Shown in pieces: positions 467 to 49,102 of a DNA stretch of 64,000 nucleotides (within the stretch, counting starts at the first letter, position 1; each line of letters begins with the position of its first letter). The stretch is from positions 16,274,645-16,338,644 of the forward strand of contig OZ316893.1 of the NCBI GenBank assembly GCA_973895155.1. Direction: 5' to 3'. Below the pieces are notes generated by a model. The model was not told the origin of the DNA, made no database searches, and was given only the letters and a program-made list of their open reading frames with translations. The translations under genes and the position numbers were made by a program. This DNA comes from Marsupella aquatica. Taxonomy: Eukaryota; Plantae; Marchantiophyta.

Positions 467-697
467 ATGTCAACTTCTGAGAGTTTGGATACAGATTCCA
501 ACTCTGACTTGTCTTCCTCTGAGGGGGACATTCCTCCTCCCCCTCAACATCCTCGAGCACCCCCTCCATTAGGCCCTATTCCATGCTGGTGTGTTAGATG
601 TAAAGGACTGGTGGTGCGTCAAGCGTGGCAGTCCATTGAACACATCGAAAACTATGGTCGACATGAGGGTGATTTACCAGGATATTCAGCTCGCCAG
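467..697 (+). CDS. TnpD first coding exon, transposase-associated zinc-finger-like domain (copy A)
   Basis: Acceptor cag at 461-463, ATG 467, IPCWCVRCK...EHIENYG resembling the CPCxxC...HLxxxG motif of CACTA TnpD N-termini. Phase-0 donor CAG|GTATTG at 697/698. Confidence 0.7.
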
Positions 698-807
698 GTA
701 TTGCTTGACATGAACTCCGCTATATATGATACACTATCATAATAGTTGGCTGGTTTGAGACCTTTTAGGAGACAAGTATTAATTTTTGTTTGTTTATGAT
801 TGAATAG

Positions 808-1769
808 GTGCCTTGTAGGGCCCGTCCTCCATTGGTCTCTAGTCAGCTAATGCATGATGCATTTCTAGCTGGTGCTAGACAGTTGCTTGCATCATCAGTT
901 GAACACCCTGAGCAATCATGTACCCCCGCACATGTTCAGGAAGATGTTGTTTGTGAACCCACAGTGGTAGAGTTGGAGCATGGTAGGGATGATGCACCGC
1001 CCCCTACTAGGGTTCTACGCACAAGACCACATTCTCATAGACGTCAACAACAGCATGTAGTTCTAGACATAGACCCATCCCATGAGCACTTCAGAAGCAG
1101 TGTTATGCCTCCACCAGGGGAGGAGTACATAAAAGTTGAAGGGAGGTTGGGCTTATCATATGTGACGGGAAAGACAATCAGTGTCTTCAAGGATTTTGAC
1201 CCTAAGAGTTTTGCGATTCCTCGTGGCCTAGCCATTGATATCCCTGTACATATATGGGGTCGGCAATGGATAGTGAAGGCATTGACCCTTGGCGGGGAGG
1301 TTGGATTAGGCTATTTGCTTTGGAGGACATTGAGGTCCCTCCAAAGCCTTGGCGTCGTGGCTATGATGGGGAACACCTTTTCCCTTACATTGGGTCTGTG
1401 TATACATCCAAGAGTTGGAACATCCTCTTGCGCCAACATCCAGTTTGGGGGGTATATGCATTGCAGACGGACTCTCACCCAGATGAGGTCCTAAGGAGGC
1501 CTTGGCATTGTAGGATAATTGATGGGGACCCTGTGCGTTCAGATAACATAGTTGGGTACATCAATAGTACACATGGTAGAGGGAGTGGACTCCAGCCTAA
1601 TGTAGAGTGGGCTCAGATTTTTGGCCCACCCACTCCGCCTTACTATGTCACACATATGGATGATCATGTTATGACAATAGCCATACGGACCATTAGGGCG
1701 AGTGATGAGTTGTTTTGTGACTATGAGTGGGACGCACCCAAGATGGGCATTCGATCTGGCCACACTTAG
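808..1769 (+). pseudogene. SET-domain exon in CACTA copy A (one frameshift near 1310)
   Basis: Acceptor tag|GTG at 808. Joining ORFs 808-1494 and 1254-1769 gives GLGLFALEDI, LFPYIG, IDGDPVRSDNIVGYINST and AIRTIRASDELFCDY, matching SET motifs I-IV. Confidence 0.8.
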
Positions 1770-2543
1770 CACATATGTGTATTCCCCATTTTTGAAGTAA
1801 TATAAGAATATTGTATTTTTTTAGGAATCCATGGGCTAACTCAAATGTATATATCCGTTTCGTGCGTTGTATGATAGAATGCATATGTTGAGCCGGATGT
1901 TGGGGTGTTACCACGAGCTATGCGCCAACACCTTGTTCAGGCCATAGAAGATTGGCGACATGCCTCTCTACCACCAGATGGCGATCTGGATGTTCCAGAG
2001 CAGGAACCATATGCCTCCCAATCAAGAGTTGACAAAGATAGGGCCATGGATGACTTGATGCACCAATTCTATGACATAGAGGATGGTGATCATGACATGG
2101 CTGATGGGGAGAACATTGAGGTCCCACTTCCACATCAAGAAGGCTCAAGGAGTTCAGCCTCCAAATAGTGGAAGGAAGCACGTCAGCATGCGCAAACTCA
2201 GATATTTGATGGATCACGCTTGTCTCGTCTTTCAGCAATAATGTTGTTGTTGAACTTGCAGCAAAGACATGGAGCAAGCAACCTACTTCTTGATGATCTC
2301 TTTTGGACATTGCATGATTGTATCTTGCCAAAAGGAAACAACTTGCCGGATTCTTGGAAAGAGGCAAAGAAGGTCTTGAAGTCCATAGGTCTGTTGTACA
2401 AAGTCATACATGCTTGCGTGAATGATTGTGTTCTGTTTAGAGGCACTTATAAAGATGCAATGTCATGTCCTACATGTGAGAAGCCAAGGTATCGTGAGGA
2501 CATGTTGACGGGAAAAGTACCTCAGAAGGTCATGAGGTACTTT

Positions 2544-5371
2544 TGTGACGCCGATGACATGGTCCTTATTCTGTAATACGATGGAATTGGTATGTTGTAT
2601 GCAATAAGTAACTGTGAGATGGCATAACGATCATCAAGATGGCAAGAATAAGGGCAATCATGGTGTTTAGAGTAGGACTAGGCCAGGTTAGCCTGAAGAA
2701 TGCACAACCAAGGTAGACATAATGGAGACAATCATTGTAGCTAGGGGAAGAGAGGAGTCACCTCCTCTACCATACTAATGTGTTGGCAAGCACAATGGAG
2801 CATGGGGGCTCTCCAAGATGCAGGGGGAGATGCGGTAATTTGGGGAAGCAAGTCTCCATGATTGAAGAAATGGCTATGTGGTATGGTGGTTGTTCTCATA
2901 ATGAAATTTGAATGTCTTTTTGTGTGCATCTTCATTCCATGTGTTAGGATAGTGGTTCATAGTCTAGTCTTAGAATGTTAGGGAAATAAAAAGCTATGTC
3001 GCGGGTGGTCGACGACCATATCTCTTTCAATGTCACCAAATCCGGATCTGTAAAGAGCATTGGAAAGATCTGGTCAAGGCAAGTAAAATAGATATAAAAC
3101 ACTTGGGAAACAAAGGTGTATTAAGAAAGATACGACTTGATTAGTGTGACGGGTTAACTTGTGGCCGGAATTAGCGGATTCGGCTTTGGTTTCGGGTTAA
3201 CCTAAGCTCGGCTACGGCTTAGCTTAGGTCAGCACGGCTTCAGCTTAGCTCAGGTCAGCACGGCTCCAGCTTAGCTCAGGTCAGCACGACTTCAGCTTAG
3301 GCTTAACCCGGGTTCGGGTTAGATTGAGCTCGGGTTAGACTGAACTCGGGTTAGCCTAAACTTGAGCTTGGGTTAGCATAGATAAGCTCGGTTTGGGGCT
3401 CAACTTAGCCTAGGATAGCGGATACGGATAGAGGCTAGCAAACACGGATAGCGGATAGTGGATACGAATAGAGGTTAGCAAACACGGATAGCGGACACGA
3501 ACAACGGACACGGACAACGGACATAGACAACGGACACAGACAACGGACATGGACAACGGACACAAAAGCGAATGTGAACAACAGACACGGATCACGACTT
3601 AGCCCGAGTTAGCTCTACTCGGGTTAGCTATGTAACTTGGGTTAGCGCAACAGTGTATACCCCCTTTCGGTTGCAGGGGCATAACTTTCTCTCTATTTGC
3701 CCAAATTGGCTATAATTGACATCGTTGGAAAGAGGAGCTCAAGCCACTTCCAACGCTGCTATCCACGCAGTAGATGGTTGAATAGAAAAATCGTGAGAGG
3801 AGGTGCAAGCTTGCAAAAACTATGGAGGAGGGCCAAATCCAAAGTACATAGCCAATTCGAGATAGAAATAAAGTTGCGAGTTAGGGTTCAGTAGTTAGAG
3901 ATAGTGGCGGCTCTATTAGGGCTGGGATGGGGCTCCAGCAGCGTAGTATCCACCCATTTGGGCACAGTGTGAGAGTATATAGAGCAGCCCCCCGGTAAAG
4001 GCAGCTGGGGGACTTCAGTTGTGTGATCTCACGTAGACTGAGCAGCAGGGAGGAGCTCTGTGCAAGGAAGGCTGGGCTTGGAAGTTGTGTGCTGGGGAGA
4101 GCTTGGTTGTGCTATTACTCAGGGAGTAATCAACCACACTTCACAACAACAGTTGGTTAGGTTTGCAAGTTGGATTGTGGCTCTTTCTAGTAGGCAACAC
4201 AATTGGGTTCCTTTCCCCCGATACAAAGCCTTGGTGATAGGTGATGTATTGGTGATTGTAAATTGTTGGGATGATTTCAATTTGATTTGCGGTGAGCACA
4301 TTAGGGGGGTTGAGATATTGATTGCAGGGCAACAGGAGGAGCATTTACAATTTAGTCTGGCAAGACTACGTGATCCATGGGGAGTCTCGGCCTTTGTCTG
4401 GTAGAGAGCACTAAGGGATTTATGGCCAGAGTTGAGCTTGCACGGCAAGCATGAGGCCGGGCCTCATTATAGTCTTGGGTAGATTGTCGTTGAGCCTGGT
4501 ACCAGCTTTGAAGTCAAGTCAACTGTGCATGCGTAACTTGACATACTGAAATGGAGGTGTGAGATCTGTACGTGCCCCCAAGAATGAAATGCAGTGAAGG
4601 AGGTTGAGTTCAGGATTGAGTTTGCAAGGCAAGTACGGGATTGGTTCAAGTCCAATCTGCCATCGCAATCTAGAGTGAGTCGGGCTCAGGTTCAAGATTG
4701 AGCTTGCATGGCAAGCACATCGCAATCTGGAGGAGACAGCCTTCGGGCCTAGTGTTTGAAACAAGTACTCTCAGTGAACTATTGTGCACATCTTTGAATC
4801 TAATTGAGTTTTCCTCTCAGGCCTCATTTCTCTCATGGATGTGTGTGTGTGTGAGGCAATCTGAGTGTATGATGGGACTAGCATCGCCACTGAGAGATGT
4901 ACCGGGTGCATTGAAGTGGGTTGGGTGAGGGCTATCATAGCTCTGATTGCTGAGAGTGGAATGGTAGAGTGGTGGGGCAATGGCTTAGAAGTCCCTAAGC
5001 CGGGAATCAGTCAGGAGTCACTGGTTTATGGGTACATTCTGGCGGCGGAGTAGAAATATACCTATGACAGTAAGCATACGTATAGACATATGCACACCAT
5101 AGCGCTAGGCCTTGTGTGTACGGGCCCGATATGAAGACCCCTTCTCACCAGAACTATCACAAGCACAGGATCTGATTCCCAACCTTGGTTCCTAGGGATT
5201 GAGCTTGGGTGATGTGTGACAGAGTCTTGCTATGATAGTCTGGTGTTAAGGGCATAAATTGGTGTTTACCGTCCTTCACAACATCCCTTCGTGATCCTCA
5301 GGTACAAGGAGATGGTTTTGGCACCCAATAATGATGTTTTTGGTGTTAAGATCCATGTCAATTGCGTGACA
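2544..5371. mobile_element. TG...CA insertion with 5-bp TSD (solo LTR or non-autonomous TIR element)
   Basis: ACTTT at 2539-2543 and 5372-5376. Starts TGTGACGC, ends GCGTGACA. Cleanly splits the TnpD reading frame. Confidence 0.85.
3211..3592. repeat. Tandem/minisatellite repeats inside the insertion
   Basis: About 24-bp unit cggcttcagcttagctcaggtcagca (3211-3300), then ggatagcggatac and acggacacggaca-type repeats (3413-3592). Confidence 0.85.
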
Positions 5372-5639
5372 ACTTTCCTCTTATACCTCGTTTGCGCCAC
5401 CAATATAGATGTGTTGAGTTGGCTGAGTATATGGTTTGGCATTCCAAAAATTGCCTAGATATCTCGAGGGGTCACTTCCATTGAAGTGACACATCACGTG
5501 CGACGAAGTATAGGCCCATTTAAATGGGTGTGGCGGAAGACTTCCAAAGTTTGGTGGAAGAACACATAGGGCATGTTTTATTGACTGGTTGACTTTAAAG
5601 AACACATAAGCCTATTTAATTGTAAAAAATACTTTCTTT

Positions 5640-7520
5640 TGTTGTGATAGAATGAACAACATAACTATCATTCCCTTCCATATTCTTACATATAGGCTTT
5701 CCAATAGCCCGGCGATTAGGCAGTTAGTATGGCCTAACCTGAGTAGGCTTTATCCTAGTTAACCTTATCTATGGTCTAGTTAACTCGGGTTACAATACTC
5801 CCCTTGGGTGTAACATCACTCGGGGAAGAAATGTTGCACCCACTTCTAGCCTACTCTAATTGTTATTCCAAGGTTTATGGTTCGGGGGAATGTAACCTCA
5901 TTAAAACCCCCCCTCCTTTCTTGTCGGGGGAAAGAGTGTTACCATTCCATCTCTAAAAACCTTGTAATCTTGATTAATTCATGAGTAATCGATTTAGTGG
6001 AGTTAAAGTGGTGTAAAGCTGTCCCACGTGGTGTAAAGCTATCGTGTTGTGTAAAGCCTAAAAATCTCATGTGTAGTTTGGGAGTCGTGGATTTGCGTGG
6101 AGTCGAGAGTCATCTGTGTGTGTTTTGTGTCGAGTGTATGGCAGTTCTGATTGGCAATTCTTGGAAAAGAAAATATGTCGCGTTTGAGCTCTTGGCGATG
6201 GTAGTGATTCGCATTTGGTGTTGGCTACGTTGTGAAGATCGTCTCGCATGGAGTGGGGATTGCCATTCGCTCTTTGATGTTACTAGGAGGTAAGTGTTTA
6301 TAGTGCGTTTCTGGTTATTGCTTTCGGCAGTCTGCTTCTCTAAGGAAATCTTGAGAGGATTGCAAAGTCTAGCGATGTTGAAAGCTTGTGATCTGCAGTT
6401 GGATAAAGAGTGTCTTCCCTGAGAGGGAAGGAAATGTTGTGTGCAGCAATCAGCTGCCTCTTCATTGCTTTGTTCAGTTTGGCACTGACGTAAGTCAGCT
6501 CGTGAGTCATCTTGCTTAATTCTGGGTAATGGAGTCCGGGGAAGGGGTACTCCACTCCTCTCGCGACCTTCTGTCTCGTGGTAACTCTTGTATTGTGTTG
6601 GAGTACCAATCGCGGTGCTCCCCCTGAGATCGTTTATCAAGCATCCAAGTTGATTGTTGCTCTTCGTCCATTGTTGGTGTGCAAAATTGATAGGTAAGTG
6701 TGTTCAATTTATTTGTTTCAGTGCTTTTGAATGTCAGCTACAAGCTTTCTTGTGATTCTCCCCCTGAGCAAAGCAAGTATATTTACTGTAACTTCGGAAA
6801 TTGTTAGTTCTGCAGTTCAGATAAGTGTCTCGGACCTACAAAAATTGTATGTTGTCAGTGTTGTGCAGGGGGAAGCAATTTAGTAAACATGTCAGCAATG
6901 TTTTGTGAGCTTTGAATCCAATGGACTTCAATACTATTTCCTTGCTATTCATGCGTAAAGAAAACTTTAGGAGCAATGTGTTTTGTTTGATCTCCCTTTA
7001 TGAAGCCTGCTTGAATTTGTTTGACACAGGCTGTGTTGTCTTCATGGATTTTGGTTGGTGTTGACAGTGGAGGCATGCCTGTGTTCTCATGAATATGGTT
7101 AATAACATTGCGCAACCAAATACACTCCCTGCTTGATTTGTAAAGTGCTATTATCTCTGAGTGGTTGGATGATGTAGTTGTGAGTGTTTGCTTATAGCTT
7201 CGCCATGAAATTGCAATCTGTCCCATAGAAAACATACCCAGTCTGGGACTTTGCATCCTCTGGGTTGGACAGGTAGCTTGCATCAGCATACCTTGTTAGT
7301 AAGTAGTTAGTATTTGTTGGATAGAACAATCCCAGGTCTATGGTTCCTGCAAGATAACGAAAGATTTGTTTTATCCCATTCCAATGCCGGATGGTCGGCT
7401 TTGCGCTGTGGCGTGCCAACAGATTTACTGCAAAGGCTATGTCTGGCCTTGTTTGGTTTGAAAGGAACATCAGGACACCTATAGCAGATAGGTACGGTTT
7501 TTCTGAGGTGTTTACAAAAG
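5640..7520 (-). mobile_element. Copia (Bianca-like) 3' fragment: degenerate RT/RNase H, 3' region, PPT and probable short 3' LTR (about 5640-5794)
   Basis: PYLSAIGVLMFLSNQTRPDIAFAVNLLAR, YADASYLS, SQTGYVF, HEDNTACV and IKGDQTKHIAPK, all close to the element at 24.5-30.4 kb. Polypurine tract at about 5798-5805 next to a TGTAAC LTR start. Left LTR boundary approximate. Confidence 0.8.
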
Positions 7521-7850
7521 ACAGCAAACAGGAAACAGGATTTAATAACAGAAACTGGTAACAGGAAAATGGGTGGAAATTTTGAAAAAAAATTGAATTT
7601 TTTTTTTGAAGTTTTTTTTTTTCGGTCGACCAATTTTTTTTGCTAGCGCCCGGCGCTGCTAATAGTAGTGCCCAAAGCTAGCCAAAAATGTTGCATTGTT
7701 AATTTTTTTGGAAATAACATGTTTTAGGAGACATTTTTAAATTGTCATTTTTCCTAGTAACAGTGATTTTTTCCTAGTAACAGCATATTAAAAACAGGAA
7801 AAAAAAATCTTGTTTACCTGTTTCCTGTCTCTGTCGCTATACCCTAAGGC
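7520..7850. mobile_element. Possible MITE or DNA-transposon end with ACAGGAAAC repeats in both orientations
   Basis: cagcaaacaggaaacagg on the left and cctgtttcctgtctctg on the right; a similar motif occurs near 31870. No clear TSD. Confidence 0.3.
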
Positions 7851-8029
7851 GGGGGGGTTCTTAGGAAGGGTATATAAGGTAAGGACACTTCTATATATAA
7901 CCAAGAGATTTTGGGCATGTGCATACCATGACAATTAAAGAAGTAATGATGCCAACTTTTATATTGCCAATTAAAAAAAACATGAAGGTGGTGTGGTTGC
8001 GGGGGGGGCCTAGCTACATACAAAATATA

Positions 8030-11000
8030 CTAACTAGCTTGTGGAGGGTCGGGGATGTCGTTGTCTTCCACTACAACGACATTGGGTCTCTCTTGGACTA
8101 TAGACCGTGATCTAGGGATATAAGGCATGACAATGGACCAATGTGGGTCATCTGGATAGGGTAGGTAAAAGCACTGCTCAAGGTGATGTGGGAAGGCAAA
8201 GGGATTTGAGGACCTCCAATTGGAACTAATGACACTATTTGTAGATGTCTTCAAACGGGTAAATCCGCATGCATCATCTTCACATGTTTGATTGTTGCCT
8301 ACAAGATTCATCTTGAACCATTTGCACTTAAATACCACCTCCTCCAAAGTAGTATGTGCATGGTACTTCACTGTCAGGATCTCATCAATCTTCCCATAAT
8401 GGGCCACGGTGGAGCGAATGGGGTCATGTCCGATGTGCTACTCTGGGAATCCTGGGTGAACCAACCCATCACCCCACAATCTTGTGTAGCTGCTCTCTTC
8501 TCATCAAGTCGTTCCATGCGGAAATGTCTCCCCTTTGACCACATTGTCGTCCGAGTCGTGACTTTAAGCAGTGGACCATGAACCAAGGTACGAAGCTTAT
8601 CAGTCACTTGTGGGTAATGTAATATACTATCTCCGGTTTCCACCAAGGCATCCACTTCTAACAACTTTGATTTCATGTATGGGTGAAACTTGGGAAACAG
8701 CCGTGGCCGTCGACTATTTTGCTTCTCCTCCTCATAAAATTTTGTCCACTCCCCTACAACCTCTGGTGACTTATACAACATAAATGTTGTAAGTTGCAAA
8801 TGCTCTACTGAGCCTAAGCCACGCTCTCTTGATGCCCCAATGAGTCTATCATCCTCATAGTTTGCCTCTCGTGCCGCCTCATCTATCCATCCCCTAGGTG
8901 CCCTTGGATCTAGTGTGGCAACTATGTTTGTACAATAAAACATACTCTCTGCTCCAAGATGACGCTATGCAATGCTACCTTCCACCCTAGCCCGATTAGA
9001 GACATATGAGTTCATCACCCCCACGTAACACTCTACCCAATACATCCATCGACAATGTACCGGGCCTACAATTGCTACCTCGCGCACTAAATGTATGAGG
9101 AAATGAACCTGACCATCAAAGAATGAGGGTGGAAGTGGCTTCTCCAACTTGCAAACAACCTCTACTCCAAATATCTTCATCGCAACAATGTCATCCTTTG
9201 GTACCTCCTTCTGACATACCCATCTCAAAAACTTGCCCAATGACCAAAGAGCATCACAAAGTTCCTCACTACCCAATCCAATAATCGCAACTAGAATGAC
9301 ATGTTCTAGTAACCGATGATATTCATGTGTTTTTAGGTACGATGGCCATTTTGGAGAATTATCCCCCCCCAAATGCCTTACAAAGATTGGCACCATAACC
9401 TGTGGGAAACCTCATTGACCCAATCCGTCTGCAAAACTCTATGCGCTGTGCCCTGGTCAGAACCCAAGGAGGATGGATGCTAGGGGGATCACCAGGGGGG
9501 TCCAAAGATGGCCAAAAACCCAAAAGACCATGCATCCCCATCTCCTCACAACTTTCTCTCCAGTTGTGGTTCTTCTCCCCATATAGATGACGAATCAATG
9601 ATCTCCCCACATTTCCCTCAATGTGCATTGCATCCAACAAGTGATTAATGGGCATCTTTGACCAATATGGCAACTATGACAATGCAGATAAACGGGTCAT
9701 GCCACATCAGAGAAACTATAATGGATCATCAGGGTCTTGAATTCTCTCCCATACCTCGCTCCAATATGTTGGATCCTTTTGCTGAGGTTGAGGACGAGTA
9801 TCAGGTTGGCCCTCATCAGTGTCATACAAGAAATGATCACTCCTCCAAGGATGGTCTGCTGGAAGATATTTGGTATGACCAATGTAAACTATCTTACGCA
9901 AAGTACTTGACTTGCGTCTTGCCACTCCCTCCAAATCCGGTCTGCATGAAGGGCAAGCTCGATAGCCTGATGTTTGCAATCCAGAGATATACCCAAACCC
10001 TGTACCAAGCCCATATACAACCAGCCAATTATGAAATAAGGTTAATGCACACTAAATTTAAGGTAGTACATCAAGGAAATAAGCTAAGGTTTACCAGGTC
10101 ATACCTGGTAGGTCATGCATGGTCCACATAAGGATGGCCTTGAGGGTAAACGCACGAGGTACACCTCCTGTATTGCGACGTTTGTCATAACAATCCACTC
10201 CTCTCCACAGTTGCAAAAGCTCATCAATCAACGGTTGCAAGTAGATGTCAATCTTTTTTACTTGCTTAGGACCCGAGATGATCATGGAGAGCAGTAAATG
10301 ACCTTTCTTCATGGCCATCCATGGAGGGATATTGTAGTTAGTCAAAACTACTGGCCATACTGAATATGGTTTTGCTTTACCCGCCAATGCAAAAGGGCTG
10401 ACACCATCAGCTGCCAAGCCAAGTCGAACATGTCGTGGTTCAGTGCTGAACTCCCCCCATTTGCCCTCAACAAATCGATTGGCAAGAGAGTCAACCATCA
10501 TCCGCATGGCACTAGAGTTTGTAGCTATATCAGAACGATTCTTTGAGTGCCATACCATGTACTCGGCTAACTCTACACAACGGTACTGATGTCGCAATCG
10601 AGGGATGAGAGGAAAGTATCGCATAACCTTTTGAGGCACCTTCCCTGTCAACATGTCATCATGGTAGCGCGGCTTCTCACACTTAGGACATGCAGTTGCA
10701 TTCTCATGCTCCCCCCTAAAAAGAATGCAATCATTCACACATGCATGTATCACTACATACTTGAGGCCAATGGACTTCAACACTTGTTTTGCCTCCTTCC
10801 AAGAGGCTGGCATGGTATTTCCTAGTGGCAAAATATGATCATGCAAGGTACAAAAAACATCATCCAAAAGTAGGTTGTTGGCCCCATGTCTTTGCACATT
10901 CAGCAACAACATTATTGCGGAGAGCCGAGATAAGGTGCTACCCTCAAATATGCAAGTACGAGCATGACATTGAGCCTCCTCCCAATCCTTGTTCTGTCCC

Positions 11001-11269
11001 CCCCTAGCAGGTTGTGGATGAGTGGTGTTGTCATCAGTTGTACCCATATCCTCCATACCAATATCAACATCATCATCATAAAATTGGTCCATGAGCTCAT
11101 CCATGGCCCTCTCCTCATCCAGATGTGCTTGAGTAGGATTATCACCCTCATGTTGTACATCATCCTCCTGCATCCCTCCATCATGCCCATGGTTGGCCAC
11201 CATGGCCTCAACAATGTGTTGTCGCATAGCTCGTGATATGACCCCAATATCAAATTGTACATATAGGTT
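8030..11269 (-). pseudogene. TnpD transposase (Transposase_21 plus DUF4218/DUF4216-like C-terminus), copy B, several frameshifts
   Basis: PRHVRLGLAADGVSPF, SVWPVVLTNYNIPPW and IYLQPLIDELLQLW. Intron 10104-10000 restores WTMHDLPGFGYISGLQTSGYRACPSC. Downstream HLLDAMHIEGNV, PPSFFDGQVH, GPVHCRWMY and NRARVEGSIA. Confidence 0.92.
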
Positions 11270-11321
11270 CTATCATACAACATCAATGCAATCTCATTGA
11301 CATTAATCTCATTACAATCAT

Positions 11322-11323
<2 letters not shown>

Positions 11324-11352
<29 letters not shown>
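11324..11352. repeat. (AT)n microsatellite between the SET exon and the TnpD exon
   Basis: About 14 AT units seen directly. Confidence 0.95.
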
Positions 11353-11355
<3 letters not shown>

Positions 11356-11413
11356 CATCATGAATCTCATTAATTCAATGTAAGATTTACATGCATGTAA
11401 GTCCAACATACTA

Positions 11414-12359
11414 TCATGGACGGCAATGTAGGGACAATTTTGGGGCATCCCACTCATACTCACACAATACCTCCTCACCGGCTCTAATAGTCCTAATGGC
11501 TACTGTCATGATATGGTCATCCATATGTTTCACAAAATACGGATCTCTAGGAGGGCCACAAATTTGGATCCACTCTACATTAGCCTCAAAATCTCTACCT
11601 CTACCCGTTGTACTATTGATGTACCCTGCTAAATTACCATTCCGAATAGGGTCACCATCAATCATCCTACAATGCCACGGCCTAGTCAAAACCTCATCTG
11701 GGTCTGAGTCCATCCTCAAGGCGTACACCCCCCCAGCTTGGGTGTTGATGCAACAAAGTCTTCCAACTCTTTGCATTATATACAGCCCCAATGTAAGGGA
11801 AAAGGTGCTCTCCATCATATCCACGTCTCCATGGCTTTGGAGGGACCACAATGTCCTCCAAAGCATATAGACCATATCCTATATCAGCACCAATAGAGGA
11901 CGCCTTCACTATCCAAGGCTGACCCCATATGTCAACTGGTTCATTAGTATGAATGAAATCTGGAAATTTGAAGAAACTAGGAGAAAAGTCCTTCCAAACA
12001 TCAGCAGCCCTACCAGTGAGATAAGATAGTCCAAACCGGCCCTCAACACAAATATAATCTCCATTTCCGGGTGGTCGATCACTACATAACACCTCCTCCC
12101 GATTCTCTACCTGCTCCACCGGTTCATATTGTCGTCTATGTTTGTGAGACCGTGAACGTGTACGTAGGACCCTAGTATCCATTTCCTCGAGTTGAGAGAC
12201 CGGTGCATCCTCGTCTACATGCGCATTTGTGGGGATAGGAGCAGAGGGACTAAGAGGTGGATGGGCAAGGGGAGATGCAAGCAACTCCCTAGCCCTTGCT
12301 AGAAACCCTTCCAACCACATAGCATTATCAACCAGAGGAGGTGGGGGTCTACGACGCAC
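11414..12359 (-). pseudogene. SET-domain exon in CACTA copy B (one extra G in a G-run near 11730)
   Basis: Acceptor gaaatag|GTG at 12359. Motifs GYGLYALEDI, LFPYIG, IDGDPIRNGNLAGYINST and AIRTIRAGEEVLCEY. Confidence 0.82.
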
Positions 12360-12484: not shown

Positions 12485-12718
12485 CTGGCTAGGCAAATAC
12501 CCTGGTGTATCACCCTCGTGGCGACCATAGTTCTCGATGTGCTCACAAGTCTCCCAGGCATGTCGAACCACAAGTCCCTTACATTTCACACACCAACAAG
12601 GTATGGACCCTAGTGGCCGAGCACGAGGTTGGTCTGGAGGAGGGGGTGGAGGAACCTCCTCCTCAGACGAGCTCATGTCTGAGTTTGAATCCAACGTGGA
12701 ACTATCAGAAGCAAACAT
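12485..12718 (-). CDS. TnpD first coding exon, transposase-associated zinc-finger-like domain (copy B)
   Basis: gcag|ATG at 12718, IPCWCVKCK...EHIENYG, phase-0 donor CAG|GTAATA at 12485. Confidence 0.7.
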
Positions 12719-13725: not shown

Positions 13726-14644
13726 ATGGTGGGGGAAGGAGGATCGGGTGATGGGGGAGACGGGGCTGGGCCATCCCGGCCATATGAGTAGATAATGAGG
13801 GAGTTGTTTGTGGCCAAGGCAGGGCTTTTAGTGGAGGATGCAGCAAGAGTAGTCCTGGTGCTTCAGGTTTTGTTTGATGCCTCAAAAGGTGAGGCAGAGA
13901 AGGCTGCTACAGCAGCCCTCACAACAGAGAAAGAGACGAGGAAGAAGAGAAAGGAGGCGGAGAGGGCTAGGGCAAATGGTGAGGCGGCTCTCTCTCCTCG
14001 GCAAAGGGAGAAAAAGCTTTGAAGAGAAGCTAGGGAGGCAGAGAGGCTGCAAGTTGAGGAGCAAAGGCGAAGGGAGGCTGAGAGGGCTCTGCAACCTGAG
14101 CTGGCTATCAATTCAGGTGGGGCTCCAATGCCCAGGAGCTACAATTTGTTCCGCAGCCAATTCTTGCAGGTTGTGAGGGCAAATTTTGGGCCACTAGACT
14201 ACTGGGGTAAGAAAACATAGGAGGAGAGGACCAGGGTTTGGGAGCAGATCAAAGAAAGATTCAAGAACGGAGCCCACCTTGAAGACAGATTTCTAAACAG
14301 TCAAATTTCAGCCTCTGTTTCAGATGCAAGGAATCATGTGCGGGAGAAGATGAGGGATTACCTTACTGTTTTGCCAATAGATGCAGAGGTGGTCAAGGAG
14401 CACTAGTGTCCAGATGTGATTCCCCAGGGTGCATATATGGACAGCTTGGCTTGAGGAGGAGCTCTCTGTTCGAGCCTGGCTAAAGAGACAACATTGGGAC
14501 AACAAAATCAGGATTGCAGAAGAAAAACGAGCTGTCAGGGAGGATATTGACATGGCCCCCCTCCAACTGAACCTTCGACAATGGGCAGCTCAAGCAGCAA
14601 GACTTCAAAAACCTCCTGCAAACATCATAGCAGCATTGAAGTGA
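13726..14644 (+). pseudogene. Degenerate CACTA accessory ORF, possibly TnpA-like
   Basis: Read through its stops, gives a charged helix followed by WGKKT.EERTRVWEQIKERFKN...RFLNSQISASVSDARNHVREK, reminiscent of TnpA-type helical repeats. Weak, by-eye similarity. Confidence 0.4.
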
Positions 14645-15264
14645 GTAGAAGAGAGGCCCTTTGTGACTCACCGGATGGGGCAAGGCAGCTCCAATCGATT
14701 GAAGGCCTAGTTTGTAAGTGGCTCCTCCCTCCTAGCTCCCTCCTCCCTTGCTCCTCTCCGTGACCACCTGACTTCTCTTGCAAAGAGTGAACATTTTGGT
14801 TGTCCCATTTTGCTTTATCACGTTCCGATCCCCCTTTTTTTGCTCTCGGGACTGTTAAGTCCGATGGTTGTTCGTTCTGCATTGGAACCCGCATCGGACA
14901 TAGTAACATTCAAATTTGGCAGAGAAGGGGTCCAATAGCAGTCCAATGGAATCCACATCGGATGCTGCATCGGAACGTGTATATTTTGAGTGAATTTGGG
15001 TTTATTTTGTTTAAAACGGGTAGGATTTAGGGTTTTTTTGATTGCATAGGATAGGGATGCTTGACTTGCATGAAATTCTGGAATGGACCCCTTCTTGAGT
15101 TCACTTGTGATTTTTTTAGGGTTTAGAGTATTTGCTAGGGGTTAAGTAAGTTATAGAAGTTATATATAAGGCATAGAGTTTTGAGAGGGAGAAGTTTGGT
15201 ATAGGGAGTGGATTTTATGGTTGAAACTAAATTTATTGTGCTGATGTGGTCTTTTAATTTTGAA

Positions 15265-16283
15265 ATGTCAGGAGAGAGAGTATGGCCGTCCCATTGATCC
15301 AAAAGAGAGGGAACTAGCAACAAGGGATGGACCCTGTGCTCTAAAGCGTCAGATTGAGGATGAGCTGGGAGAGGTAATTGTTCCCTCCCCCTACCTAAGT
15401 TGGGACAATGTTTTGCTTAGCTAGAGCACTACTACATTTGTAGAGTTTTGACCAAGTTCCTTACTTTAATTAATTGTAATGTGCAGGAGGAGGAGGAGGA
15501 GGGGTCTCGGGAGTCAGATGATGAGGACTCAAGATCTGAGGCAGGGTTGCAGAGGGAGTCTAGAGCTACCGCAACTGTTCCTAGAGTTTTCCAGGCTGTT
15601 CCTATAGTTGCCCAGACTGTTCCTAGAGTTTCCCGGGCTGTTCCGATAGTTGCCCAGACTGTTCCTAGAGTTGCCCCTACTGCCCAGATACCTCATGTTA
15701 CCCTCACATTGGGAGGGAGGGGAGGTACGTGGGTCACATGTTGTTGATGGTGTGAGCTCTCATCAGTCACAGGGAGCATCGCGGGCTGCAAGGCCGGGGC
15801 CTTCAGGGGGTAGTAGAGGTGGTGCAGGCCCACACCATCGCTCAAGAGTATGCTCTGCACCTAACCCCCCTCGTCAAGGAGTATCTGGTGCACCTAGCCC
15901 CCCTCGTCAAGGAGTATCTACTGCACCTAGCCCCCCTTGTCGAGGCAGTGGTGACTTGGACGATGGTGGCTCTAGGGGTCTAGCGCCATCTCGTGAGTCA
16001 GGTGGCAGTACAGCATAGCATGGGCCACATGCATCATCCGCAGCCACAGCCTCTCATCACTCTAGTAGGTCTGCCGGGGGGGCAAGGCCTCCTTTTACTC
16101 TGTTGTGTCAGGGGTTGGTGGGACTTCTACCGTGCCTAGCGGTGCATCTAGTGGGTCAAGGGGTAGGACAGGATTAGACCCACCATCTGGTCAGCAGGTG
16201 GCTCCACCGGTTGTGGATCCCGCATCTGTTCCCCACCTTCGCTCTCGCCACAAGAAGAAGAAGGGACGGAACACACCTTTTTA
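15265..16283 (+). pseudogene. Degenerate two-exon low-complexity accessory ORF in the CACTA element
   Basis: GAG|GTAATT donor near 15374 and tgtgcag acceptor near 15487. Acidic, Ser/Gly/Pro-rich, with about 36-bp and 30-bp internal tandem repeats; ends in basic RHKKKKGR. Confidence 0.35.
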
Positions 16284-16569
16284 GAGGTTAGTGCCGTGTA
16301 GGTAGGTCCGGTAGCTTTGATTAGATCTTAGCAGGTGCCATGGAGTGTAGTCTCTACTTAGTGCTCCATTTAGGTGTTCCCATGGAGCAAACAGTCGTTG
16401 AGATGGGTCTACTAGGTAGGCCCATTCCATTTTGTACATATCGGGGTCGTCCCCTTTTTTAATATGAGATTTTGACCACATGTTTTGAGCCTCCTTTGGA
16501 CCCTAATATATTGGTTGATGTTCTCAAATCCCAAATAACCACCCATGAATCCCTAGCTATTGTAACAAA

Positions 16570-17143
16570 GCCATCCGTTATGATGTCCGTTTGCACCTTC
16601 ATTGGTCCTTCCGTTTCAATCACCTTCGCAACATATGATCCTTTTTGCATCGGACCCCTCCAACAAAACCAAAACATCAAAACGATGTGTCCGATGGCAA
16701 AGTCATTGGATTTTCCAAACCTCATTACATCGCAATATCGGATACTAGGTCTAACGCAACATCCGATAATTCTCCAAAGGCAAACTCCGATACTAAATGT
16801 ATCGTAAAATCTGATACTACACGCATCGCAATGTACGTAGCAAAAACTATGGAACTATCCCATACAATTACTATCGGACAATTGTCGTTTTGAGATAGGG
16901 TCTGTTTGTTGGTGTGCGATACGTATTAGATCGGATGTGCAGGTTTGTGAATGGGTTGGAATTGAAAAGTCCGTCGGCATTGTCAATGGAAAGTCCAAAG
17001 TAAGTCCGATGGTTGATTTTCGATGAGGATTGGATGGGATATTGCGAAGTGGGTTGCATCGTATAGTTGATTTTTCCGAAATGAAGTTTCCGAAGGGATC
17101 CGACAGAATAGCTATCGGATAATGGCCCTAAAATGTACTAGTG
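16570..17143. repeat. CACTA subterminal repeat array and terminus
   Basis: Many TCCGA(T)/(A)TCGGA motifs in both orientations, ending in ACTAGTG at 17143. Confidence 0.8.
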
Positions 17144-20100
17144 CTTGTCACACACATCTAAGCATAGTCACAATCAACATCACAAACATAAGAGAATGGA
17201 GTACAAGTGAAACTCCTATCTACACATGTCCAAAACCCGCAATCGCCCCCCTAGCTGGGAGTGTGGTCCCCTAGCTGGGAGTGAGGTCCCTTAACTCTAG
17301 CTAGCCATAAGTTATACAATTGAAGGTTGGTATACACCTTTTTAAGTGTGAAGATCAGGAGGCCGGGTGCAAGTGAGCCCCATCGATCACCTTCCGGCAA
17401 TCTATACTTTCCATGAGAACACAAATGGTAACTGGTTGGCTTCACCAACATTGAGGACACAACCATGATCCCCTAGGAATCACCTCCAACGGTGGTGTCA
17501 AAAACATTATGTGTCATCCTCTAAAACACTTATCACAAATCAACATAGTGGCTACTCCTTGAGCAGATCCACACAACATACACTTCAAGCCGACACAAAT
17601 TTGAGCCAAGCTTGGATCTACTATACCATCAATGTTTGAAAGATGACATGGTGCACAATTGCGTACATGATCCTTCCAAACCATACCGTCCCGTCCTTCC
17701 AACATTAGGACACCAGAAGATAACACTTCATGCACACGTAAGATTGTCCGACCTGCGGTCACATCAAGTGTCATTGGTGCTATTTGCTGCAAATAAATAA
17801 AATCACCAAGATGAAACCCTCAAACCCTCGCACAATAACCTCCTCCACAAATAGTGGCATACCTCAAAGTATCACATGTTGAGCAATGGCAAGGTTGTCA
17901 AAGGCCATGGGCATGACTCTCTCAAAAACTTGTGCCCTCTCTAAACCCACATTGACCCAAACATCAGGATCATCCAAATCCACAACAATTGCCACATCAC
18001 GACGAATAGCCGCTGGCAAATCTGGCTGTCTATCATCGAGCAAGAAATAAGGTGAGAAGGATGCAAGTGATGCTTGTCGACTAAAATGGTAGCCCATAGC
18101 TAACCAAGGTAGCTGGAGATCCCAATCTCCCAAATGACCAACCTGCAAGCCATACTTACGCAATCCTCTCTTCACGGTTTATACAACTCTCTGTGCCAAT
18201 CCATCTGCCTCAGGATGATTACAAGAAGTAGTACAATGATCAATAAGAGCTTGCTCACAAAAACCCTCAAACTCTCCACAAAAATTTGTGCCCTGATCAA
18301 TCAACACCTCAACCGGTGCTCCAAAATGACTGAGTACTCGATCCAAAAATGCGATAGCCACTCCTCCACTAGTTTTATCTGGCAATGCCACTAGTTCAAT
18401 CCACTTGGAGAAGTGCTCCACCATAACCAACATACCGATTCTGACGTTGGGTAAGGGGTAATGGACCAACAAAGTCCAAACTCCATCGATATCCCAAACC
18501 CATTACTGGTAATGGATGCAATTGGGGAGTGGGAGCATTGAACGATGCTTGCACTCGATCACATACCACACACTTAGCAATAAATTGTTGGACATCAGTG
18601 TGCATACCATGCCACCAATATTGTGTCTGCAACAAGCTATGTGTGCATTTCACACCAAAGTGACCCAACTCCTTGTGTGCATGTCGCACCAAATGTACTT
18701 GTTGTGATGATTTTGGTACAACCAACACCTTGCCATCACGTAGTATCCTCAAAAGATGGTTTCCTTCCCATCGGAATCTCTTGGCTTGTTGTAGAACCCT
18801 ATCTCGCTCCTTAGCATCACAATTGCCAACAATGGAGCCACCACGCAAATATTCCAACATCCTCTTGTTGTTATGAATATCTGGCTGTCCAAAATTGCCT
18901 CATCAACATCCATATCTGAAGACTCAACGTCTACCCCATCCAATGAAGTAGAGTCCACAGATCCACTATATGTTAGAACCCAACAAAGAAAGGCACATGC
19001 ATGCTATCCTGGCACACTCTCCTTATCTGACTCATCATGCCATCGAGCTCTAGTCTCATCCTCTTGACTGGTACATGGATTGTGGCTCAACCCATTTGCA
19101 TCCAAGTTCACTTTACCAGGCCTATGTACAACCTGGAAATCATACTCTTGTAACAACAATGCCCATTGTGCAAGCTTCCCTATAACCTTGTTAGACTCCA
19201 TTAACCACTTGAGGGGCTGGTGATCAATGATCAAGGTGAACGGATTACCAAACAAATAGCAACGGAAATGTGCCATAGCCCACACTGCCGCCAAACACTC
19301 TCCCTCATACGAGCTATACTTAGCCTTTGCTGAATTGTTTGATCTACTGGCATACGCCACAACAAACTCATTCCCCTCATCATCCTTCTGAGTCAGCACT
19401 GCTCCAAGTCCTGCTCCACTCCAATCAGTGTGTAGCTGAAATGGTCATCCCAAATTGGGTCTTCTCAAAATAGGTGTTGACGCCAATCTTGCCTTCAACT
19501 CTTGGAAAACATGTTCTTGGTTGTCACCCCAAATCCACTCATGATCCAACTTAGTGAGTATGGTTAAAGGCTTAGCAAGCTGGCTAAATCCTTTAACATA
19601 CAGTCTATAATAGCTTGCCAATCCCAAGAATGCACCAACTCTACTCACATCAGTAGGACAAGGAATCTGTGTAATGGCCTCCACCTTAGTCTCTTGCACA
19701 CCCAATCCTCTTGGGTAGATAGTGTGGCCCAAACACTCAATTTTGTCTCAGAAGAACTTACATTTTCCAGGATGGAGTTTCAACCCATGTTCTCTCAATC
19801 TCTCCAACACAATCTGCAAGTGCCTTTGATGTTCTTCCACCGTAGAAGAATAGACCAAAATGTCATCAATGTAACATCTCACAAAATCCAAACTTGCAAG
19901 AATTTGATCCATGACTCTTTGGAATTCAGCTGGTGCATTCTTCAACCCAAATGGTAAGAACAACCACTGATACAAATGATCTTTGCCATAAGAATCAATT
20001 CCCCAAAATGTTGTCTTGGATCTATTAGAATGCCTAATAGGCAATTGATGGTACCCTGCCTTGAGGTCCAACGAACTAAATATCTTCGCATGCCCCACAA

Positions 20101-20146
20101 CATCAAAGGTCTCCTCTGGTGTGGGCATGGCATATCAATCGGACTT
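17144..20146 (-). mobile_element. Gypsy retrotransposon 3' half (RT-RNase H-integrase-PHD), PPT and truncated 3' LTR (17144-17241)
   Basis: SSLDLKAGYHQ, LPFGLKNAPAEFQR, YIDDILVYS, VVAYASR, DHQPLKWL, HKELGHFG, WSLDFVGP and HPEADGLA, with many stops and frameshifts. G-rich PPT at about 17244-17253. Confidence 0.92.
17442..17582 (-). pseudogene. PHD finger at the integrase C-terminus
   Basis: CMLC-x7-MLICDKCFRG*HIMFLTPPLEVIPRGSWLCPQC matches the C4HC3 PHD pattern, with W changed to stop and one C changed to F. Confidence 0.85.
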
Positions 20147-20281
20147 TGTGGGTTTTGGACATGTGTAGATAGGAGTTCCACTTGTACTCCATTCTCTTAT
20201 GTTTGTGATGTTGATTGTGACTATGCTTAGATGTGTGTGACAAGCAATGTATGTTGTGTAACTATGTGTATGCGCACGACA
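20147..20281 (+). repeat. LTR of the same Gypsy family in inverted orientation
   Basis: 20147-20244 is the reverse complement of 17144-17241 (96/98 identical by eye). TG start; probable CA end at 20281. Confidence 0.85.
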
Positions 20282-23200: not shown

Positions 23201-25227
23201 ACATTAACTCACCCTGGTTTGCACGACTTACAGTACAATAAGGCGGCCAAAAGTAGTAACCCAGGGTACCCCGAATCAGCCTATTTTTTAAGGATTTCAC
23301 TTTTTTGCCAGAGTGACTAATGTAAAGTGTGCCAAGGAGAAGATGCTCAAAATATTCATAATTCAATTATTTTCCTGACAATCAGATCTCCCTAGATTTA
23401 AGGTTGACCATTAGATTCTGGCTAATGGGGCCTGGGATATATTAGATGGAGCACTGGCTATTGAGACAGCAAAATAGTAGAGAATTTTAGCCAAATGTGG
23501 CGAACCATTTTTGGGGAGGTGGAATCTAACGAATTTTCGCCACTAAAAAAAACATCCCTGCTAGCCATAAAAGGAGACAGTCTCGAAAACAGCAAGTCTG
23601 CCACACAGCCACAGTGTGAAACGCACAGCGCTAGGAGTGGAGAGATGATCTGTAAGCGTTTTTCCAGACTATATTCCCCCGACCGCACGAGCAAGAATTT
23701 GTTTAGGTCATTCGCAACCATTTTCTGCTCTAGAAAATTCCAACTGCGGCTCACCTCAAGTTTCAAAAACACACCAAAATTGCAACCCATTCGAATTCAT
23801 TGAGACTTTTGGGTCGGGTCAAGTTACTGTTTTAATTCAGAGCACATCAATCAATGCTTGACTTGAAATGGATTACCGTACTTTGTACATATACTCTCTC
23901 ATCCGTGTAACTTCTCAACCGTGCTCTCGATCGCGAATCTAAGTTCGTAATTACAGAGGAAAATAGTGCGCATAAACTAGAGAGAGAAACGTGCATATAG
24001 AATCAAATTCTTCATAATTATGTCTTGGTGGGAATAATAATACCTGCATGAAGTACATGCCAGTTTTGACGTGATCAAGGGCCACAGTGCATTCAAGAGA
24101 TCATGAGGTGAATAAGATATGCAGGGCAGCAGCGCAGCACGCAGGTATGGAGACTCAGAGGTGGCCCATGTGCTTCGTATGATTCCCAGTGATAGGCGCA
24201 GCTCTTACATTTTTGTTAGATATATGAATCTCTAGCAGCCGTTACGTTGGGTTGTGTCAATCGTCGTCGGACCGGGACCCCATTGGGAAGCGAGATATGA
24301 GACCCTCGAGGATTCTAAGTACGGCGGATCAAATTACCGGCAGTACCATACCCTCAAATGATAGTGTCAGCATAAATTTCAGTACGGTACCCATTCGACG
24401 TAACGACGAATGTCAGCTGCTATCTCTACGAAATGAAGGGAACCGTTGTACCTCTAGCTCCACTAGGCGGCCTTATATGTGGTCAAGATAGGGTTTTTGT
24501 TATTAAACTGCCATTTGTTGAAACACCACCAGAATAATGTGGTTCTTCTCATTCATGTGTGAGTTCTTTATACATTGAGGTGGTTACTTTAATGGTAACT
24601 ACCTAAGGTTTGGTGTTAAACCTTACCCTAGAGTAGACTTAACCTATGGGTTCTAACACTCCCCTTGGGTGCATCACATCATAGGTTTGGTTAAAGTGAT
24701 GCAACCATATTGAGTCTACTGTGAGGGTGTTCACTATTTGGTTGTGTAATGTAGTTCTAGTAAAAGAATCAGAAGGTGGTGTTTATGTAGCCTCATTAAA
24801 ACCTCCTCTCCTTTCTTGCAGGAGGAAAGAGTGCTACCATCTTTGGATGAAAAATGAATAGGGTGTCGTATTGTAGTTTATGCGGTGTATTCTCTACTAT
24901 GGGGTATCGTTACTGATGTGCAGTGGTCTTGTAGTCGGGTTTGGTGTTGTGGTGTTTTCCCGAGTAATGTCGCGGATTCGGAGTCGGTGGCGTTGTGCCC
25001 TAGTCTTGGTTGGAGCTTGTGTTCTTGGTGGTCGTGGGTTGTGCTCCGGTCGTCGTCTCCTTTCCTCTGGTGATTGGTCGCCTCATCTCCATTCTGGAGG
25101 TTGTCCTCGTCGCTTTTGTGAATGGTTGAGGTTCAGATTCTTCTGTGTGTCGTTGTCGTGGATTTGATTAGGGTATCTGTTCTTCAATGCCCTCTATCCG
25201 TTGCGTTCGCCCCCTGACTTTTGGATT

Positions 25228-38267: not shown

Positions 38268-38275
38268 AAATCATA

Positions 38276-39994: not shown

Positions 39995-40095
39995 TAGCCC
40001 TCCACTCAAAATTCGCTGTGTCCGCACAAGAAGTGAAATAATATATTTGATCAGGCACTTCTGAAGTGGCTCTTTAATGATGTGGAGTTGTAAAA

Positions 40096-42528: not shown

Positions 42529-43029
42529 CGCTTAGTCAGCAATCTCTTCTGGCGCAGCTCCACTCTTCCCTCAATCAGGGTCGCCACCTCCTCTATATCA
42601 ATCATCGGTAATGAGCGCTACTAAACTTGGTTTCAAAAACCACTCGTCGTTTCTCTTCTTCGACCCATTAGACGTCACAATCCCTCGCCGTACTTGAGAT
42701 CATTCCAAAATTTCAACTTGTGCTGGACGCTTCAGAAAGCGGCCCAAATCCGGACGGAAATCCTGAGTCAGCAAGTTGACGCCTCCGAAGTGCATCTCCT
42801 GGACGCTTCAGAAAGCGTCGTCTACTGGTCGTGGAGCGGACGCCTCAGAAAGCGTCCCATCGGTCCCGCTTCGCGAAATCAGTCCACAATGCTGGACGCT
42901 TCAGAAAGCGTCTCAAAAAAAATTTTAAAAAATTTTCCAAACATAATCTTTTAATCTACTATTCTAAGCCCTTCCATACTAGTATTTCTTACAGATATAA
43001 AATATACCTATCCCAGCCCTCCACTCAAA

Positions 43030-45960: not shown

Positions 45961-46038
45961 TTGCTGATCTGAGAATTGTTTCCCTGTATCATGGCCGACT
46001 CCTTGTAAGTTTGCTTTCTCCCCTTCCGGTGGAAATTG

Positions 46039-49048: not shown

Positions 49049-49102
49049 ACCTCATTCTTAGCAATAGTAAAACTTCTCTCCCCAGTTAATTGTCTTGCTA
49101 CA

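Follow-up and report, generated by a model that had tools for sequence, protein, structure and literature searches.

A SET-domain exon, probably an alternative last exon, within the transposase gene of a plant CACTA transposon lineage

Two broken CACTA copies in the window

The window analysed here—the whole 64,000-nucleotide stretch of Marsupella aquatica DNA—contains two oppositely oriented copies of a CACTA element, termed A and B, both of which are broken. The features are given below by their position in the window.

467..697, plus strand: zinc-finger exon of copy A (CxCxxC..H..GR, transposase-associated-like), 77 codons from Met, with a phase-0 donor CAG/GTATTG
698..807, plus strand: predicted intron of copy A, GT..AG, 110 nt, with an identical junction in gene model P0002
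808..1769, plus strand: SET exon of copy A, comprising a linker, a folded N-flanking subdomain, the SET core, a short tail and a stop
1770..1877, plus strand: AT-rich spacer of copy A, the predicted 3' UTR of the SET product plus the remainder of the skipped intron, with the acceptor TATGATAG at its end
1878..2543, plus strand: first transposase exon of copy A, with a phase-0 acceptor and an in-frame stop at 2166-2168
2544..5371, no strand assigned: solo-LTR-like insertion of 2,828 bp (TG..CA, short target duplication) interrupting the transposase exon of copy A
8033..9999, minus strand: downstream transposase region of copy B (DUF4218, DUF4216), with stops and frameshifts
10105..11269, minus strand: first transposase exon of copy B, with a phase-0 acceptor, Transposase_21 and acidic motifs at 10414-10391 and 10123-10103
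11414..12359, minus strand: SET exon of copy B, with an extra G in the run 11728-11734, terminating in TGA TAG
12485..12718, minus strand: zinc-finger exon of copy B, 78 codons, with a phase-0 donor CAG/GTAATA
13750..16300 (outer limits approximate), plus strand: ORF2, a broken second gene head to head with the transposase gene, with a conserved core at 14074-14403
16550..17143, plus strand: subterminal TCCGA(T) cluster of 12 copies and element end ...TACTAGTG

The two SET exons lie where an earlier sequence-only reading had placed them (808-1769 on the plus strand, 12359-11414 on the minus strand), and all of the SET peptides it quoted were found in the translations of the copies. The exons are 76.6% identical across 495 nt and, as that reading had also proposed, each carries one differing 1-bp indel: copy A is one base short near 1311, and copy B has seven G at 11728-11734 against six in copy A. 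The base absent from copy A is present in family contigs of three out of four sequencing runs, and protein P0002 of Calypogeia fissa reads through both sites without a break. Past the solo-LTR-like insertion, the transposase frame of copy A picks up again at approximately 5372-5470, while the downstream region of copy B retains a CxxC motif (9958-9944), an H-motif (9640-9611) and, within DUF4218, the third acidic residue (9048-9025).

The transposase displays the three Pfam domains of the CACTA/EnSpm class—Transposase_21 (E 1.3e-39), DUF4218 (2.9e-22) and DUF4216 (5.1e-07, at its cut-off)—together with the acidic triad motifs, which we take to supply the D, D and E of the enzyme. The description of the upstream exon as a transposase-associated zinc finger holds in part: Transpos_assoc (PF13963) was matched weakly by two of four aligned members (best E 1.2e-4), but by the finger exon of neither window copy. 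Subterminal repeat clusters, a further hallmark of CACTA/EnSpm elements, are present as well, with 12 TCCGA in 16550-17143 versus a mean of 0.9 in random window segments. The element end at 17143 resembles the CACTA ends of two related metagenome loci (L005 and L013), the former flanked on both sides by TCGCAA clusters. Neither a partner end of CACTA..TAGTG terminal inverted repeats nor a copy with both termini and a 3-bp target-site duplication was found in the window or the loci. ORF2, which is conserved in the window and at four of 15 such loci, returned no informative Pfam family or PDB sequence, no Atlas cluster above 0.77 and no TnpA family match; a complex prediction of its core with the finger exon, made without alignments, gave no verdict either way (score 0.00). 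We infer a TnpA-like role for this gene.

Identity, relatives and conservation of the SET exon

Both window copies exceed the Pfam SET cut-off of 22.4 bits (24.9 and 25.2 bits), which excludes a chance motif match; among 62 homologues, 42 match at E<=0.05 and 20 exceed the cut-off. An AlphaFold2 model of P0002, built from an alignment of 57 sequences, had block pLDDT values mostly between 82 and 98 over residues 131-330 (one block at 60), and its top matches in Foldseek and VIA were SET proteins (best Z 11.1, rmsd 2.9, 126 aligned). The SET fold assigned to the exon is thus upheld by the profile in both copies and by a confident model of the intact Calypogeia homologue; modelling from one sequence alone gave no useful fold (pLDDT 34), and a PDB search with one sequence yielded 0 matches. 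The close structural matches are histone enzymes in nearly all cases, with H3K4, H4K20, H3K27, H3K9 and non-histone SETs scoring within about 1-2 Z of one another. No subfamily is singled out by these matches, and therefore the substrate cannot be inferred from them. The SET core is better conserved between copies A and B than the linker, as the sequence-only reading had noted (amino-acid identity 71% against 43%), but the last ~50 residues before the core, which it had counted as linker, form a conserved and confidently folded subdomain.

The active site was surveyed over 90 homologues, counting each column over the rows that have a residue there. The motif-I glycines are kept in 67/74 and 72/74 homologues, the Tyr/Phe of YxG in 72/76, the Asn of NHS in 80/89, the Glu of ELxxY in 75/76 and the final Tyr in 70/77. 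We presume that GxG, YxG, Asn and ELxxY play their usual SET roles, the register being backed by the HMMER alignment. While these motifs are present, the His of NHS and the post-SET cysteines of canonical eukaryotic subfamilies are missing: the His is replaced by Ser in 83/88 homologues, and no short homologue tail has more than one Cys. The pattern first seen in the two window copies, i.e., catalytic Tyr kept, NHS altered and post-SET cysteines absent, extends across the homologues. The chain ends a median of 7 residues after the final Tyr (2-30 residues in 67 of 70 homologues), and with the His replaced and the post-SET cysteines missing, the sites that hold cofactor and substrate may not be complete.

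The homologues fall into 60 clusters, including Calypogeia and Riccia proteins, with sequence identities of only 20-57%. No canonical host SET was found among these clusters, which agrees with the view that the exon is not a near-identical piece of one host SET gene. In a quick tree without outgroup (59 rows, 34 short rows omitted), copy A clusters with Calypogeia and P0003 (SH-aLRT 99); the Riccia proteins fall in two groups, compatible with a single Riccia origin. Searches for related loci in metagenomes with P0002 as the query, and in viral contigs with P0105, found none. A SET motif pattern likewise matched nothing in either viral contigs or prokaryote genomes, blanks that weigh little since the pattern catches just one of the two window copies. 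Viral and bacterial SETs are similar only at a generic level (top viral rows, 13-21% identical), such that no donor can be named.

Between copies A and B, the SET core has a dN/dS of 0.21 (bootstrap 0.13-0.32), next to 0.14 for the conserved transposase part and 0.19 for the finger exon; this value, far from 1, agrees with the selected family-level module suggested previously. When 14 recent copies belonging to a single family are compared, variation in the SET core is near-neutral (0.76 for singleton and 1.05 for shared variation) and does not differ significantly from that in the transposase (p 0.43-0.52). The SET exon is under purifying selection between families, whereas copies within one recent family decay near-neutrally. 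Rather than a one-off capture, the exon is a long-established module of the family.

Exon order and splice phases

The layout of finger exon, SET exon and transposase exons recurs at 15 metagenome loci representing two further lineages; exon order, phase-0 donor and phase-0 acceptors are common to all three lineages, the SETs of which are about 40% identical. The finger donor is compatible with the SET and the transposase acceptors downstream, and the latter directly follows an in-frame stop in two of three lineages. None of 17 DNA copies has a phase-0 GT between the final Tyr and the stop, and 47 of 70 homologue tails lack any Val codon able to give one. A weak phase-2 GT does follow the Tyr in 15 of 17 copies; scored in two contexts, it agrees with the consensus at 3-4 of nine positions, whereas the finger donors agree at 6-7. 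With a SET exon that ends in a stop without an in-frame donor, and a finger donor that suits both acceptors, the likely products are a finger-transposase and a separate finger-SET protein; the SET exon would then probably be an alternative last exon, not part of a SET-transposase fusion. The exon does lie inside the transposase gene, as the sequence-only reading stated, but its terminal stop suggests that it probably contributes to a separate product. The proposed analogy with SETMAR fits poorly for the same reason: the phase-0 donor is missing in 17/17 copies, and the exon resembles an alternative terminal one.

The finger is joined to SET and then to a stop in the gene models P0002 (Calypogeia), P0025 and P0046 (Riccia), and P0013 is a continuous ORF from the finger through SET to the stop. 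Judged from DNA, SET and the transposase catalytic domain probably do not share one frame, the sole contrary model being P0019 from Riccia (one of 62 scanned), where an intact SET end is joined to Transposase_21. In P0035, P0047 and P0057, a SET truncated before the Tyr is joined to transposase-like sequence. GT..AG joints were absent from the rows listed from contigs of six sequencing runs, a result with no bearing on expression. The short tail was discarded as proof of a terminal exon, since real introns also reach a stop within 0-30 codons.

Possible role of the finger-SET product

We propose that this plant CACTA lineage uses its SET exon as an alternative last exon to encode a predicted methyltransferase, which would mark the histones of the element's own copies and thereby maintain these copies in an active state—a proposal to which we give an even chance. 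The zinc-finger exon would have two alternative splice partners, the transposase and the SET exon; the finger-SET protein, a predicted SAM-dependent protein-lysine methyltransferase, might be recruited through the finger that both products share, whether to the element's DNA, its transposase or ORF2, and could then methylate histones on the element's own copies, counteracting silencing. Taken step by step, a separate finger-SET product is highly probable; that it is an active enzyme seems reasonably probable, and that it writes an anti-silencing histone mark has slightly less than an even chance. More doubtful is the broadest formulation, in which a land-plant transposon, present in both major liverwort classes, would encode a histone methyltransferase of its own, made by alternative splicing in place of the transposase, with the shared finger aiming both and the splice choice toggling between jumping and an anti-silencing rewriting of own-copy chromatin.

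An active finger-SET methyltransferase might instead act on the element's own transposase, ORF2 or a host silencing factor, or deposit a repressive mark that limits the element. We deem this unlikely, although architecture and active-site data fit it equally well, the tie between histone and non-histone structural matches agrees with it, and the family-specific N-flanking subdomain could set an unusual substrate; against it, the closest structural matches are nearly throughout histone enzymes, and the known transposon regulators VANC and TnpA are described as counteracting silencing. The SET could also be dead or partner-dependent, binding histone tails or acting as a decoy and so protecting the element against the methyltransferases of its host, as the replaced NHS His, the absent post-SET module and the early chain end would allow. 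Such a role appears improbable: the cofactor-binding Gly, the Asn and both channel tyrosines are kept at 20-57% identity, and in the alignment a solved SET, LegAS4, likewise lacks this His. SETs without the NHS His, as in LegAS4, can be active. A SETMAR-like finger-SET-transposase fusion with an internal SET exon would accord with P0019 and the phase-2 GT, but we consider it quite improbable in view of the missing phase-0 donor, the phase-0 transposase acceptor in three lineages, the conserved stop and the presence of both domains in one of 62 homologues. CACTA elements capture gene fragments, and variation among recent copies is near-neutral, but a passively carried host SET fragment is scarcely credible and largely refuted by the dN/dS between families, the identical position in lineages ~40% identical, the lack of a canonical host SET in 60 clusters and the 14-29% identity of solved SETs to that of the element.

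Returning to the proposed element-borne histone methyltransferase, several known systems offer partial parallels. Among red algae, the Plavaka accessory gene PAG2 (EnSpm/CACTA superfamily) carries a SET (10.1101/2025.02.11.637652) and resembles the present case in keeping it on an EnSpm-superfamily transposon over long evolutionary time. PAG2, however, stands as an accessory gene of its own and additionally encodes an N6-adenine methylase domain, which was absent from the 62 proteins scanned here, whereas our SET exon is nested in a Transposase_21-type transposase gene, shares a finger exon and resides in a land plant. As for the earlier statement that no plant CACTA with a SET is known, SET cargo is on record for the superfamily in these red algae, though our literature search found no land-plant case. 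HarbingerS, Phytophthora MuDR families and Helitrons are likewise DNA transposons with SET methyltransferase cargo (PMC12730594; 10.1101/2025.02.11.637652), but belong to other superfamilies and hosts and bear it in accessory genes, not as an alternative transposase-gene exon.

The TnpA and TnpD proteins of maize En/Spm and Arabidopsis EN/SPM3, alternatively spliced from one gene (PMC13547354; 10.64898/2026.08.24.746577), set a precedent for alternative splicing here: one CACTA transcription unit, predicted in our case to yield transposase and regulator, alongside family-specific subterminal motif clusters. TnpA is a helix-turn-helix DNA binder dependent on host demethylases (10.64898/2026.08.24.746577), whereas the alternative product described here has an enzyme fold and is accompanied by a separate, head-to-head ORF2. 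SETMAR, too, is a single gene that holds both SET and transposase exons and has splice isoforms, but it has been domesticated by its host and fuses a canonical pre-SET/SET/post-SET module to an inactive mariner transposase (PMC8704517); here the SET sits in a multi-copy element and is probably unfused to the catalytic domain. VANC, which VANDAL elements encode and which acts on copies of the element that makes it, parallels the role we propose (PMC12730594; 10.1101/2025.02.11.637652); it belongs to the Mutator superfamily, has no SET fold and has demonstrated anti-silencing activity, whereas for our element such activity is proposed.

Transposon-borne SET genes have been noted in oomycetes, red algae and Helitrons, the accounts consulted describing no functional test, and the known plant anti-silencing factors, VANC and TnpA, are DNA binders. 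With a selected SET module, bryophyte CACTAs would be transposons that bring a chromatin writer of their own. Transposons of the bryophyte lineage are reported to be marked by H3K27me3 plus H3K9 and DNA methylation, and Marchantia transformation and chromatin maps make the question of an element-borne writer directly testable. Finally, because it is compact and has no post-SET module, the SET protein might find use as a small tool for writing chromatin marks.

The SET exon of the liverwort CACTA family

The SET module is real, old and selected—a non-canonical SET in a CACTA-type element. Both SET exons in the window lie where the sequence-only reading had placed them, with the peptides it quoted present in the translations and 76.6% nucleotide identity across 495 nt. 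The proposed 1-bp indels were likewise recovered: one base is missing near 1311 in copy A, where contigs of three of the four sequencing runs compared (X1, X2 and X5) carry an extra one, and copy B has a run of seven G at 11728-11734. Even unrepaired, the natural ORF pieces of copies A and B exceeded the Pfam SET cut-off of 22.4 bits (24.9 and 25.2 bits), and the downstream exons of copy B matched Transposase_21, DUF4218 and DUF4216. Both copies are dead: in copy A a stop occurs at 2166 and an insertion of 2.8 kb lies within the transposase, and copy B has stops and frameshifts.

Features of the CACTA copies in the window
808-1769, plus strand: SET exon of copy A
2544-5371: insertion resembling a solo LTR, with short tandem repeats in its interior, in the transposase exon of copy A
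12359-11414, minus strand: SET exon of copy B
35454-36348, minus strand: third CACTA remnant, C-terminal (DUF4216-side) part only, about 50% identical to copy B

A phmmer search of 1.84 billion representatives returned 60 homologue clusters at E<=0.001. On reading, all 60 carried the family's own motifs and none resembled a canonical host SET, which speaks against the capture of a host gene that the sequence-only reading had named as a refuting outcome. The named members are a Calypogeia fissa protein (CAM6082608.1, hereafter P0002; 73% identical) and six Riccia sorocarpa proteins; the two genera fall in the two large liverwort classes. A bryophyte, perhaps a leafy liverwort, is accordingly the probable host of the window. 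Similar DNA occurred in 344, 1008, 112 and 38 contigs of four sequencing runs labelled organisms A, B and C, with two X5 contigs spanning both the SET exon and a transposase exon. Moreover, a motif scan of metagenome contigs yielded 15 loci, 14 of them from one recent family (mostly 91-95% identical) and one, L007, from a different family; the SETs of both families are 38-48% identical to P0002. Transposase exons followed the SET exon in ten loci by tblastn and three more by reading—the contigs of the remaining two stop just past the SET—and the zinc-finger exon preceded it in five by tblastn, plus L007 by reading. Proteins of the same SET type also form two distant clades (P0103, P0105-P0107, P0109 and P0050, P0099, P0100), encoded by contigs that are AT-rich or unnamed.

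SET cargo as such is already known from other transposons: it is described in HarbingerS and Phytophthora MuDR (PMC12730594), and in Helitrons and the red-algal Plavaka PAG2, Plavaka belonging to the EnSpm/CACTA superfamily (bioRxiv 10.1101/2025.02.11.637652), and one survey counts 823 chromatin-transposon fusion models, SETs among them. Neither CACTA nor SET domain was found as a term in the two liverwort genome papers checked, and no SET exon in a CACTA element of a land plant turned up in the literature searched, which covered few subscription journals; Repbase and the survey's supplementary table may contain bryophyte cases.

Proposed role, fold and active site

Most likely, a single promoter, opposite a second gene (ORF2) lying head to head, would yield two proteins sharing the N-terminal finger. 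The finger would recruit the SET protein to element DNA, transposase or ORF2 at family-specific subterminal motifs, where it would methylate histones and so maintain cognate copies in an open state.

ORF2 and subterminal motif clusters
13750-16300, plus strand: ORF2, head to head with the transposase gene; also in four of the 15 metagenome loci (L002, L005, L013, L015)
L005, 5683-6300 and 14900-15900: TCGCAA clusters

The core of ORF2 is conserved and helical and matches no known family; it may be a bryophyte counterpart of TnpA, which, according to 10.64898/2026.08.24.746577, appears confined to flowering plants. That source gives CCVTCGCAAA as the Arabidopsis TnpA-Spm1 target, the core of which is identical to the L005 motif, TCGCAA; the window's family carries TCCGAT instead.

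Residues 131-330 of P0002 were predicted with high confidence from a 57-sequence alignment, and the best Foldseek matches of the model were SET8, LegAS4, MLL1 and G9a (E ~1e-6). VIA-align gave Z 11.1 and rmsd 2.9 over 126 aligned residues, with many SET subfamilies tied, so that neither donor nor substrate is deducible from structure; a non-histone or repressive SET target is accordingly a serious, if unlikely, alternative to histone methylation favouring an open state. Some 50 residues N-terminal to the SET core form a family-specific folded subdomain, mostly beyond the structurally aligned ranges.

Conservation in 90 homologues, counted over rows with a residue, stands at 90-99% for the motif-I glycines, the aromatic residue of YxG, the Asn, the Glu and the final Tyr. 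Two positions ahead of that Tyr, small residues (C, A, V, I, T) predominate, a feature associated with multiple methylation in other SETs. The His of NHS is replaced by Ser in 83 of 88, and the chain ends within 30 residues of the Tyr in 67 of 70, lacking a cysteine cluster. A dead or decoy SET is distinctly improbable alongside the retained residues, which include the NHS Asn, a residue important for SETMAR activity (PMC8704517).

Gene structure, predicted splicing and selection

In three lineages, the finger exon runs into a phase-0 GT donor, and a phase-0 AG acceptor opens the SET exon and the first transposase exon alike. By these phases, skipping the SET exon would regain a finger-transposase protein, and using it would give finger-SET and a stop, the arrangement seen in the continuous ORF P0013 and in gene models P0002, P0025 and P0046. 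The SET exon is thus probably an alternative terminal exon. TnpA and TnpD arise through alternative splicing (PMC13547354; 10.64898/2026.08.24.746577), and CACTA anatomy is treated in PMC4158355. The earlier claim of a SET exon within the transposase gene stands as to location, but the exon is probably not part of the transposase protein, since all 17 copies compared at the DNA level have a stop without a phase-0 GT between it and the Tyr; in 15 of these the Tyr is followed by a weak phase-2 GT, and 47 of 70 homologue tails have no Val codon. A true SET-transposase fusion is very unlikely, although Riccia model P0019 joins an intact SET to Transposase_21 and three models join a SET truncated before the Tyr to transposase-like sequence; the Riccia gene models derive from a pipeline mixing transcript and ab initio evidence.

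Between copies A and B (Nei-Gojobori, break codons omitted), the SET core gave a dN/dS of 0.21 (bootstrap 0.13-0.32, 151 codons), which is not near 1. Values were 0.14 in the conserved portion of the transposase and 0.19 in the finger exon, and the two linkers reached 0.36 and 0.53. Together with the 60 clusters, the SET-core value upholds the earlier proposal of a family-level module rather than a one-off capture. Within the recent 14-copy family, the SET core is near-neutral (0.95 pairwise over nine copies; 0.76 for singleton and 1.05 for shared variation), and the transposase of the same copies gave 0.39-1.94, on small counts and with stops present, with no significant difference between the two (p 0.43-0.52). 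We read this near-neutral variation as decay following insertion, and current selection there gains no support; set beside the constraint between A and B, the SET exon as passive cargo is extremely improbable.

Other elements in the window

Adjoining the CACTA end, a remnant at 17142-20246, whose ORFs resemble reverse transcriptase, RNase H and integrase by eye, is flanked by 101-bp arms that are inverted, not direct, and 98% complementary. A young Gypsy-type element (37917-52487) carries long gag-pol ORFs (43030-49051, minus strand) and an additional 811-aa antisense ORF (40096-42531, plus strand) without significant Pfam match; its two 2.08-kb repeats are 99.8-100% identical, with their two parts in swapped order. 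Finally, two Copia-type elements (25200-29700 and 6100-7680, both minus strand) share a stretch of 69% identity, and one of them occupies the expected site of copy B's missing end.
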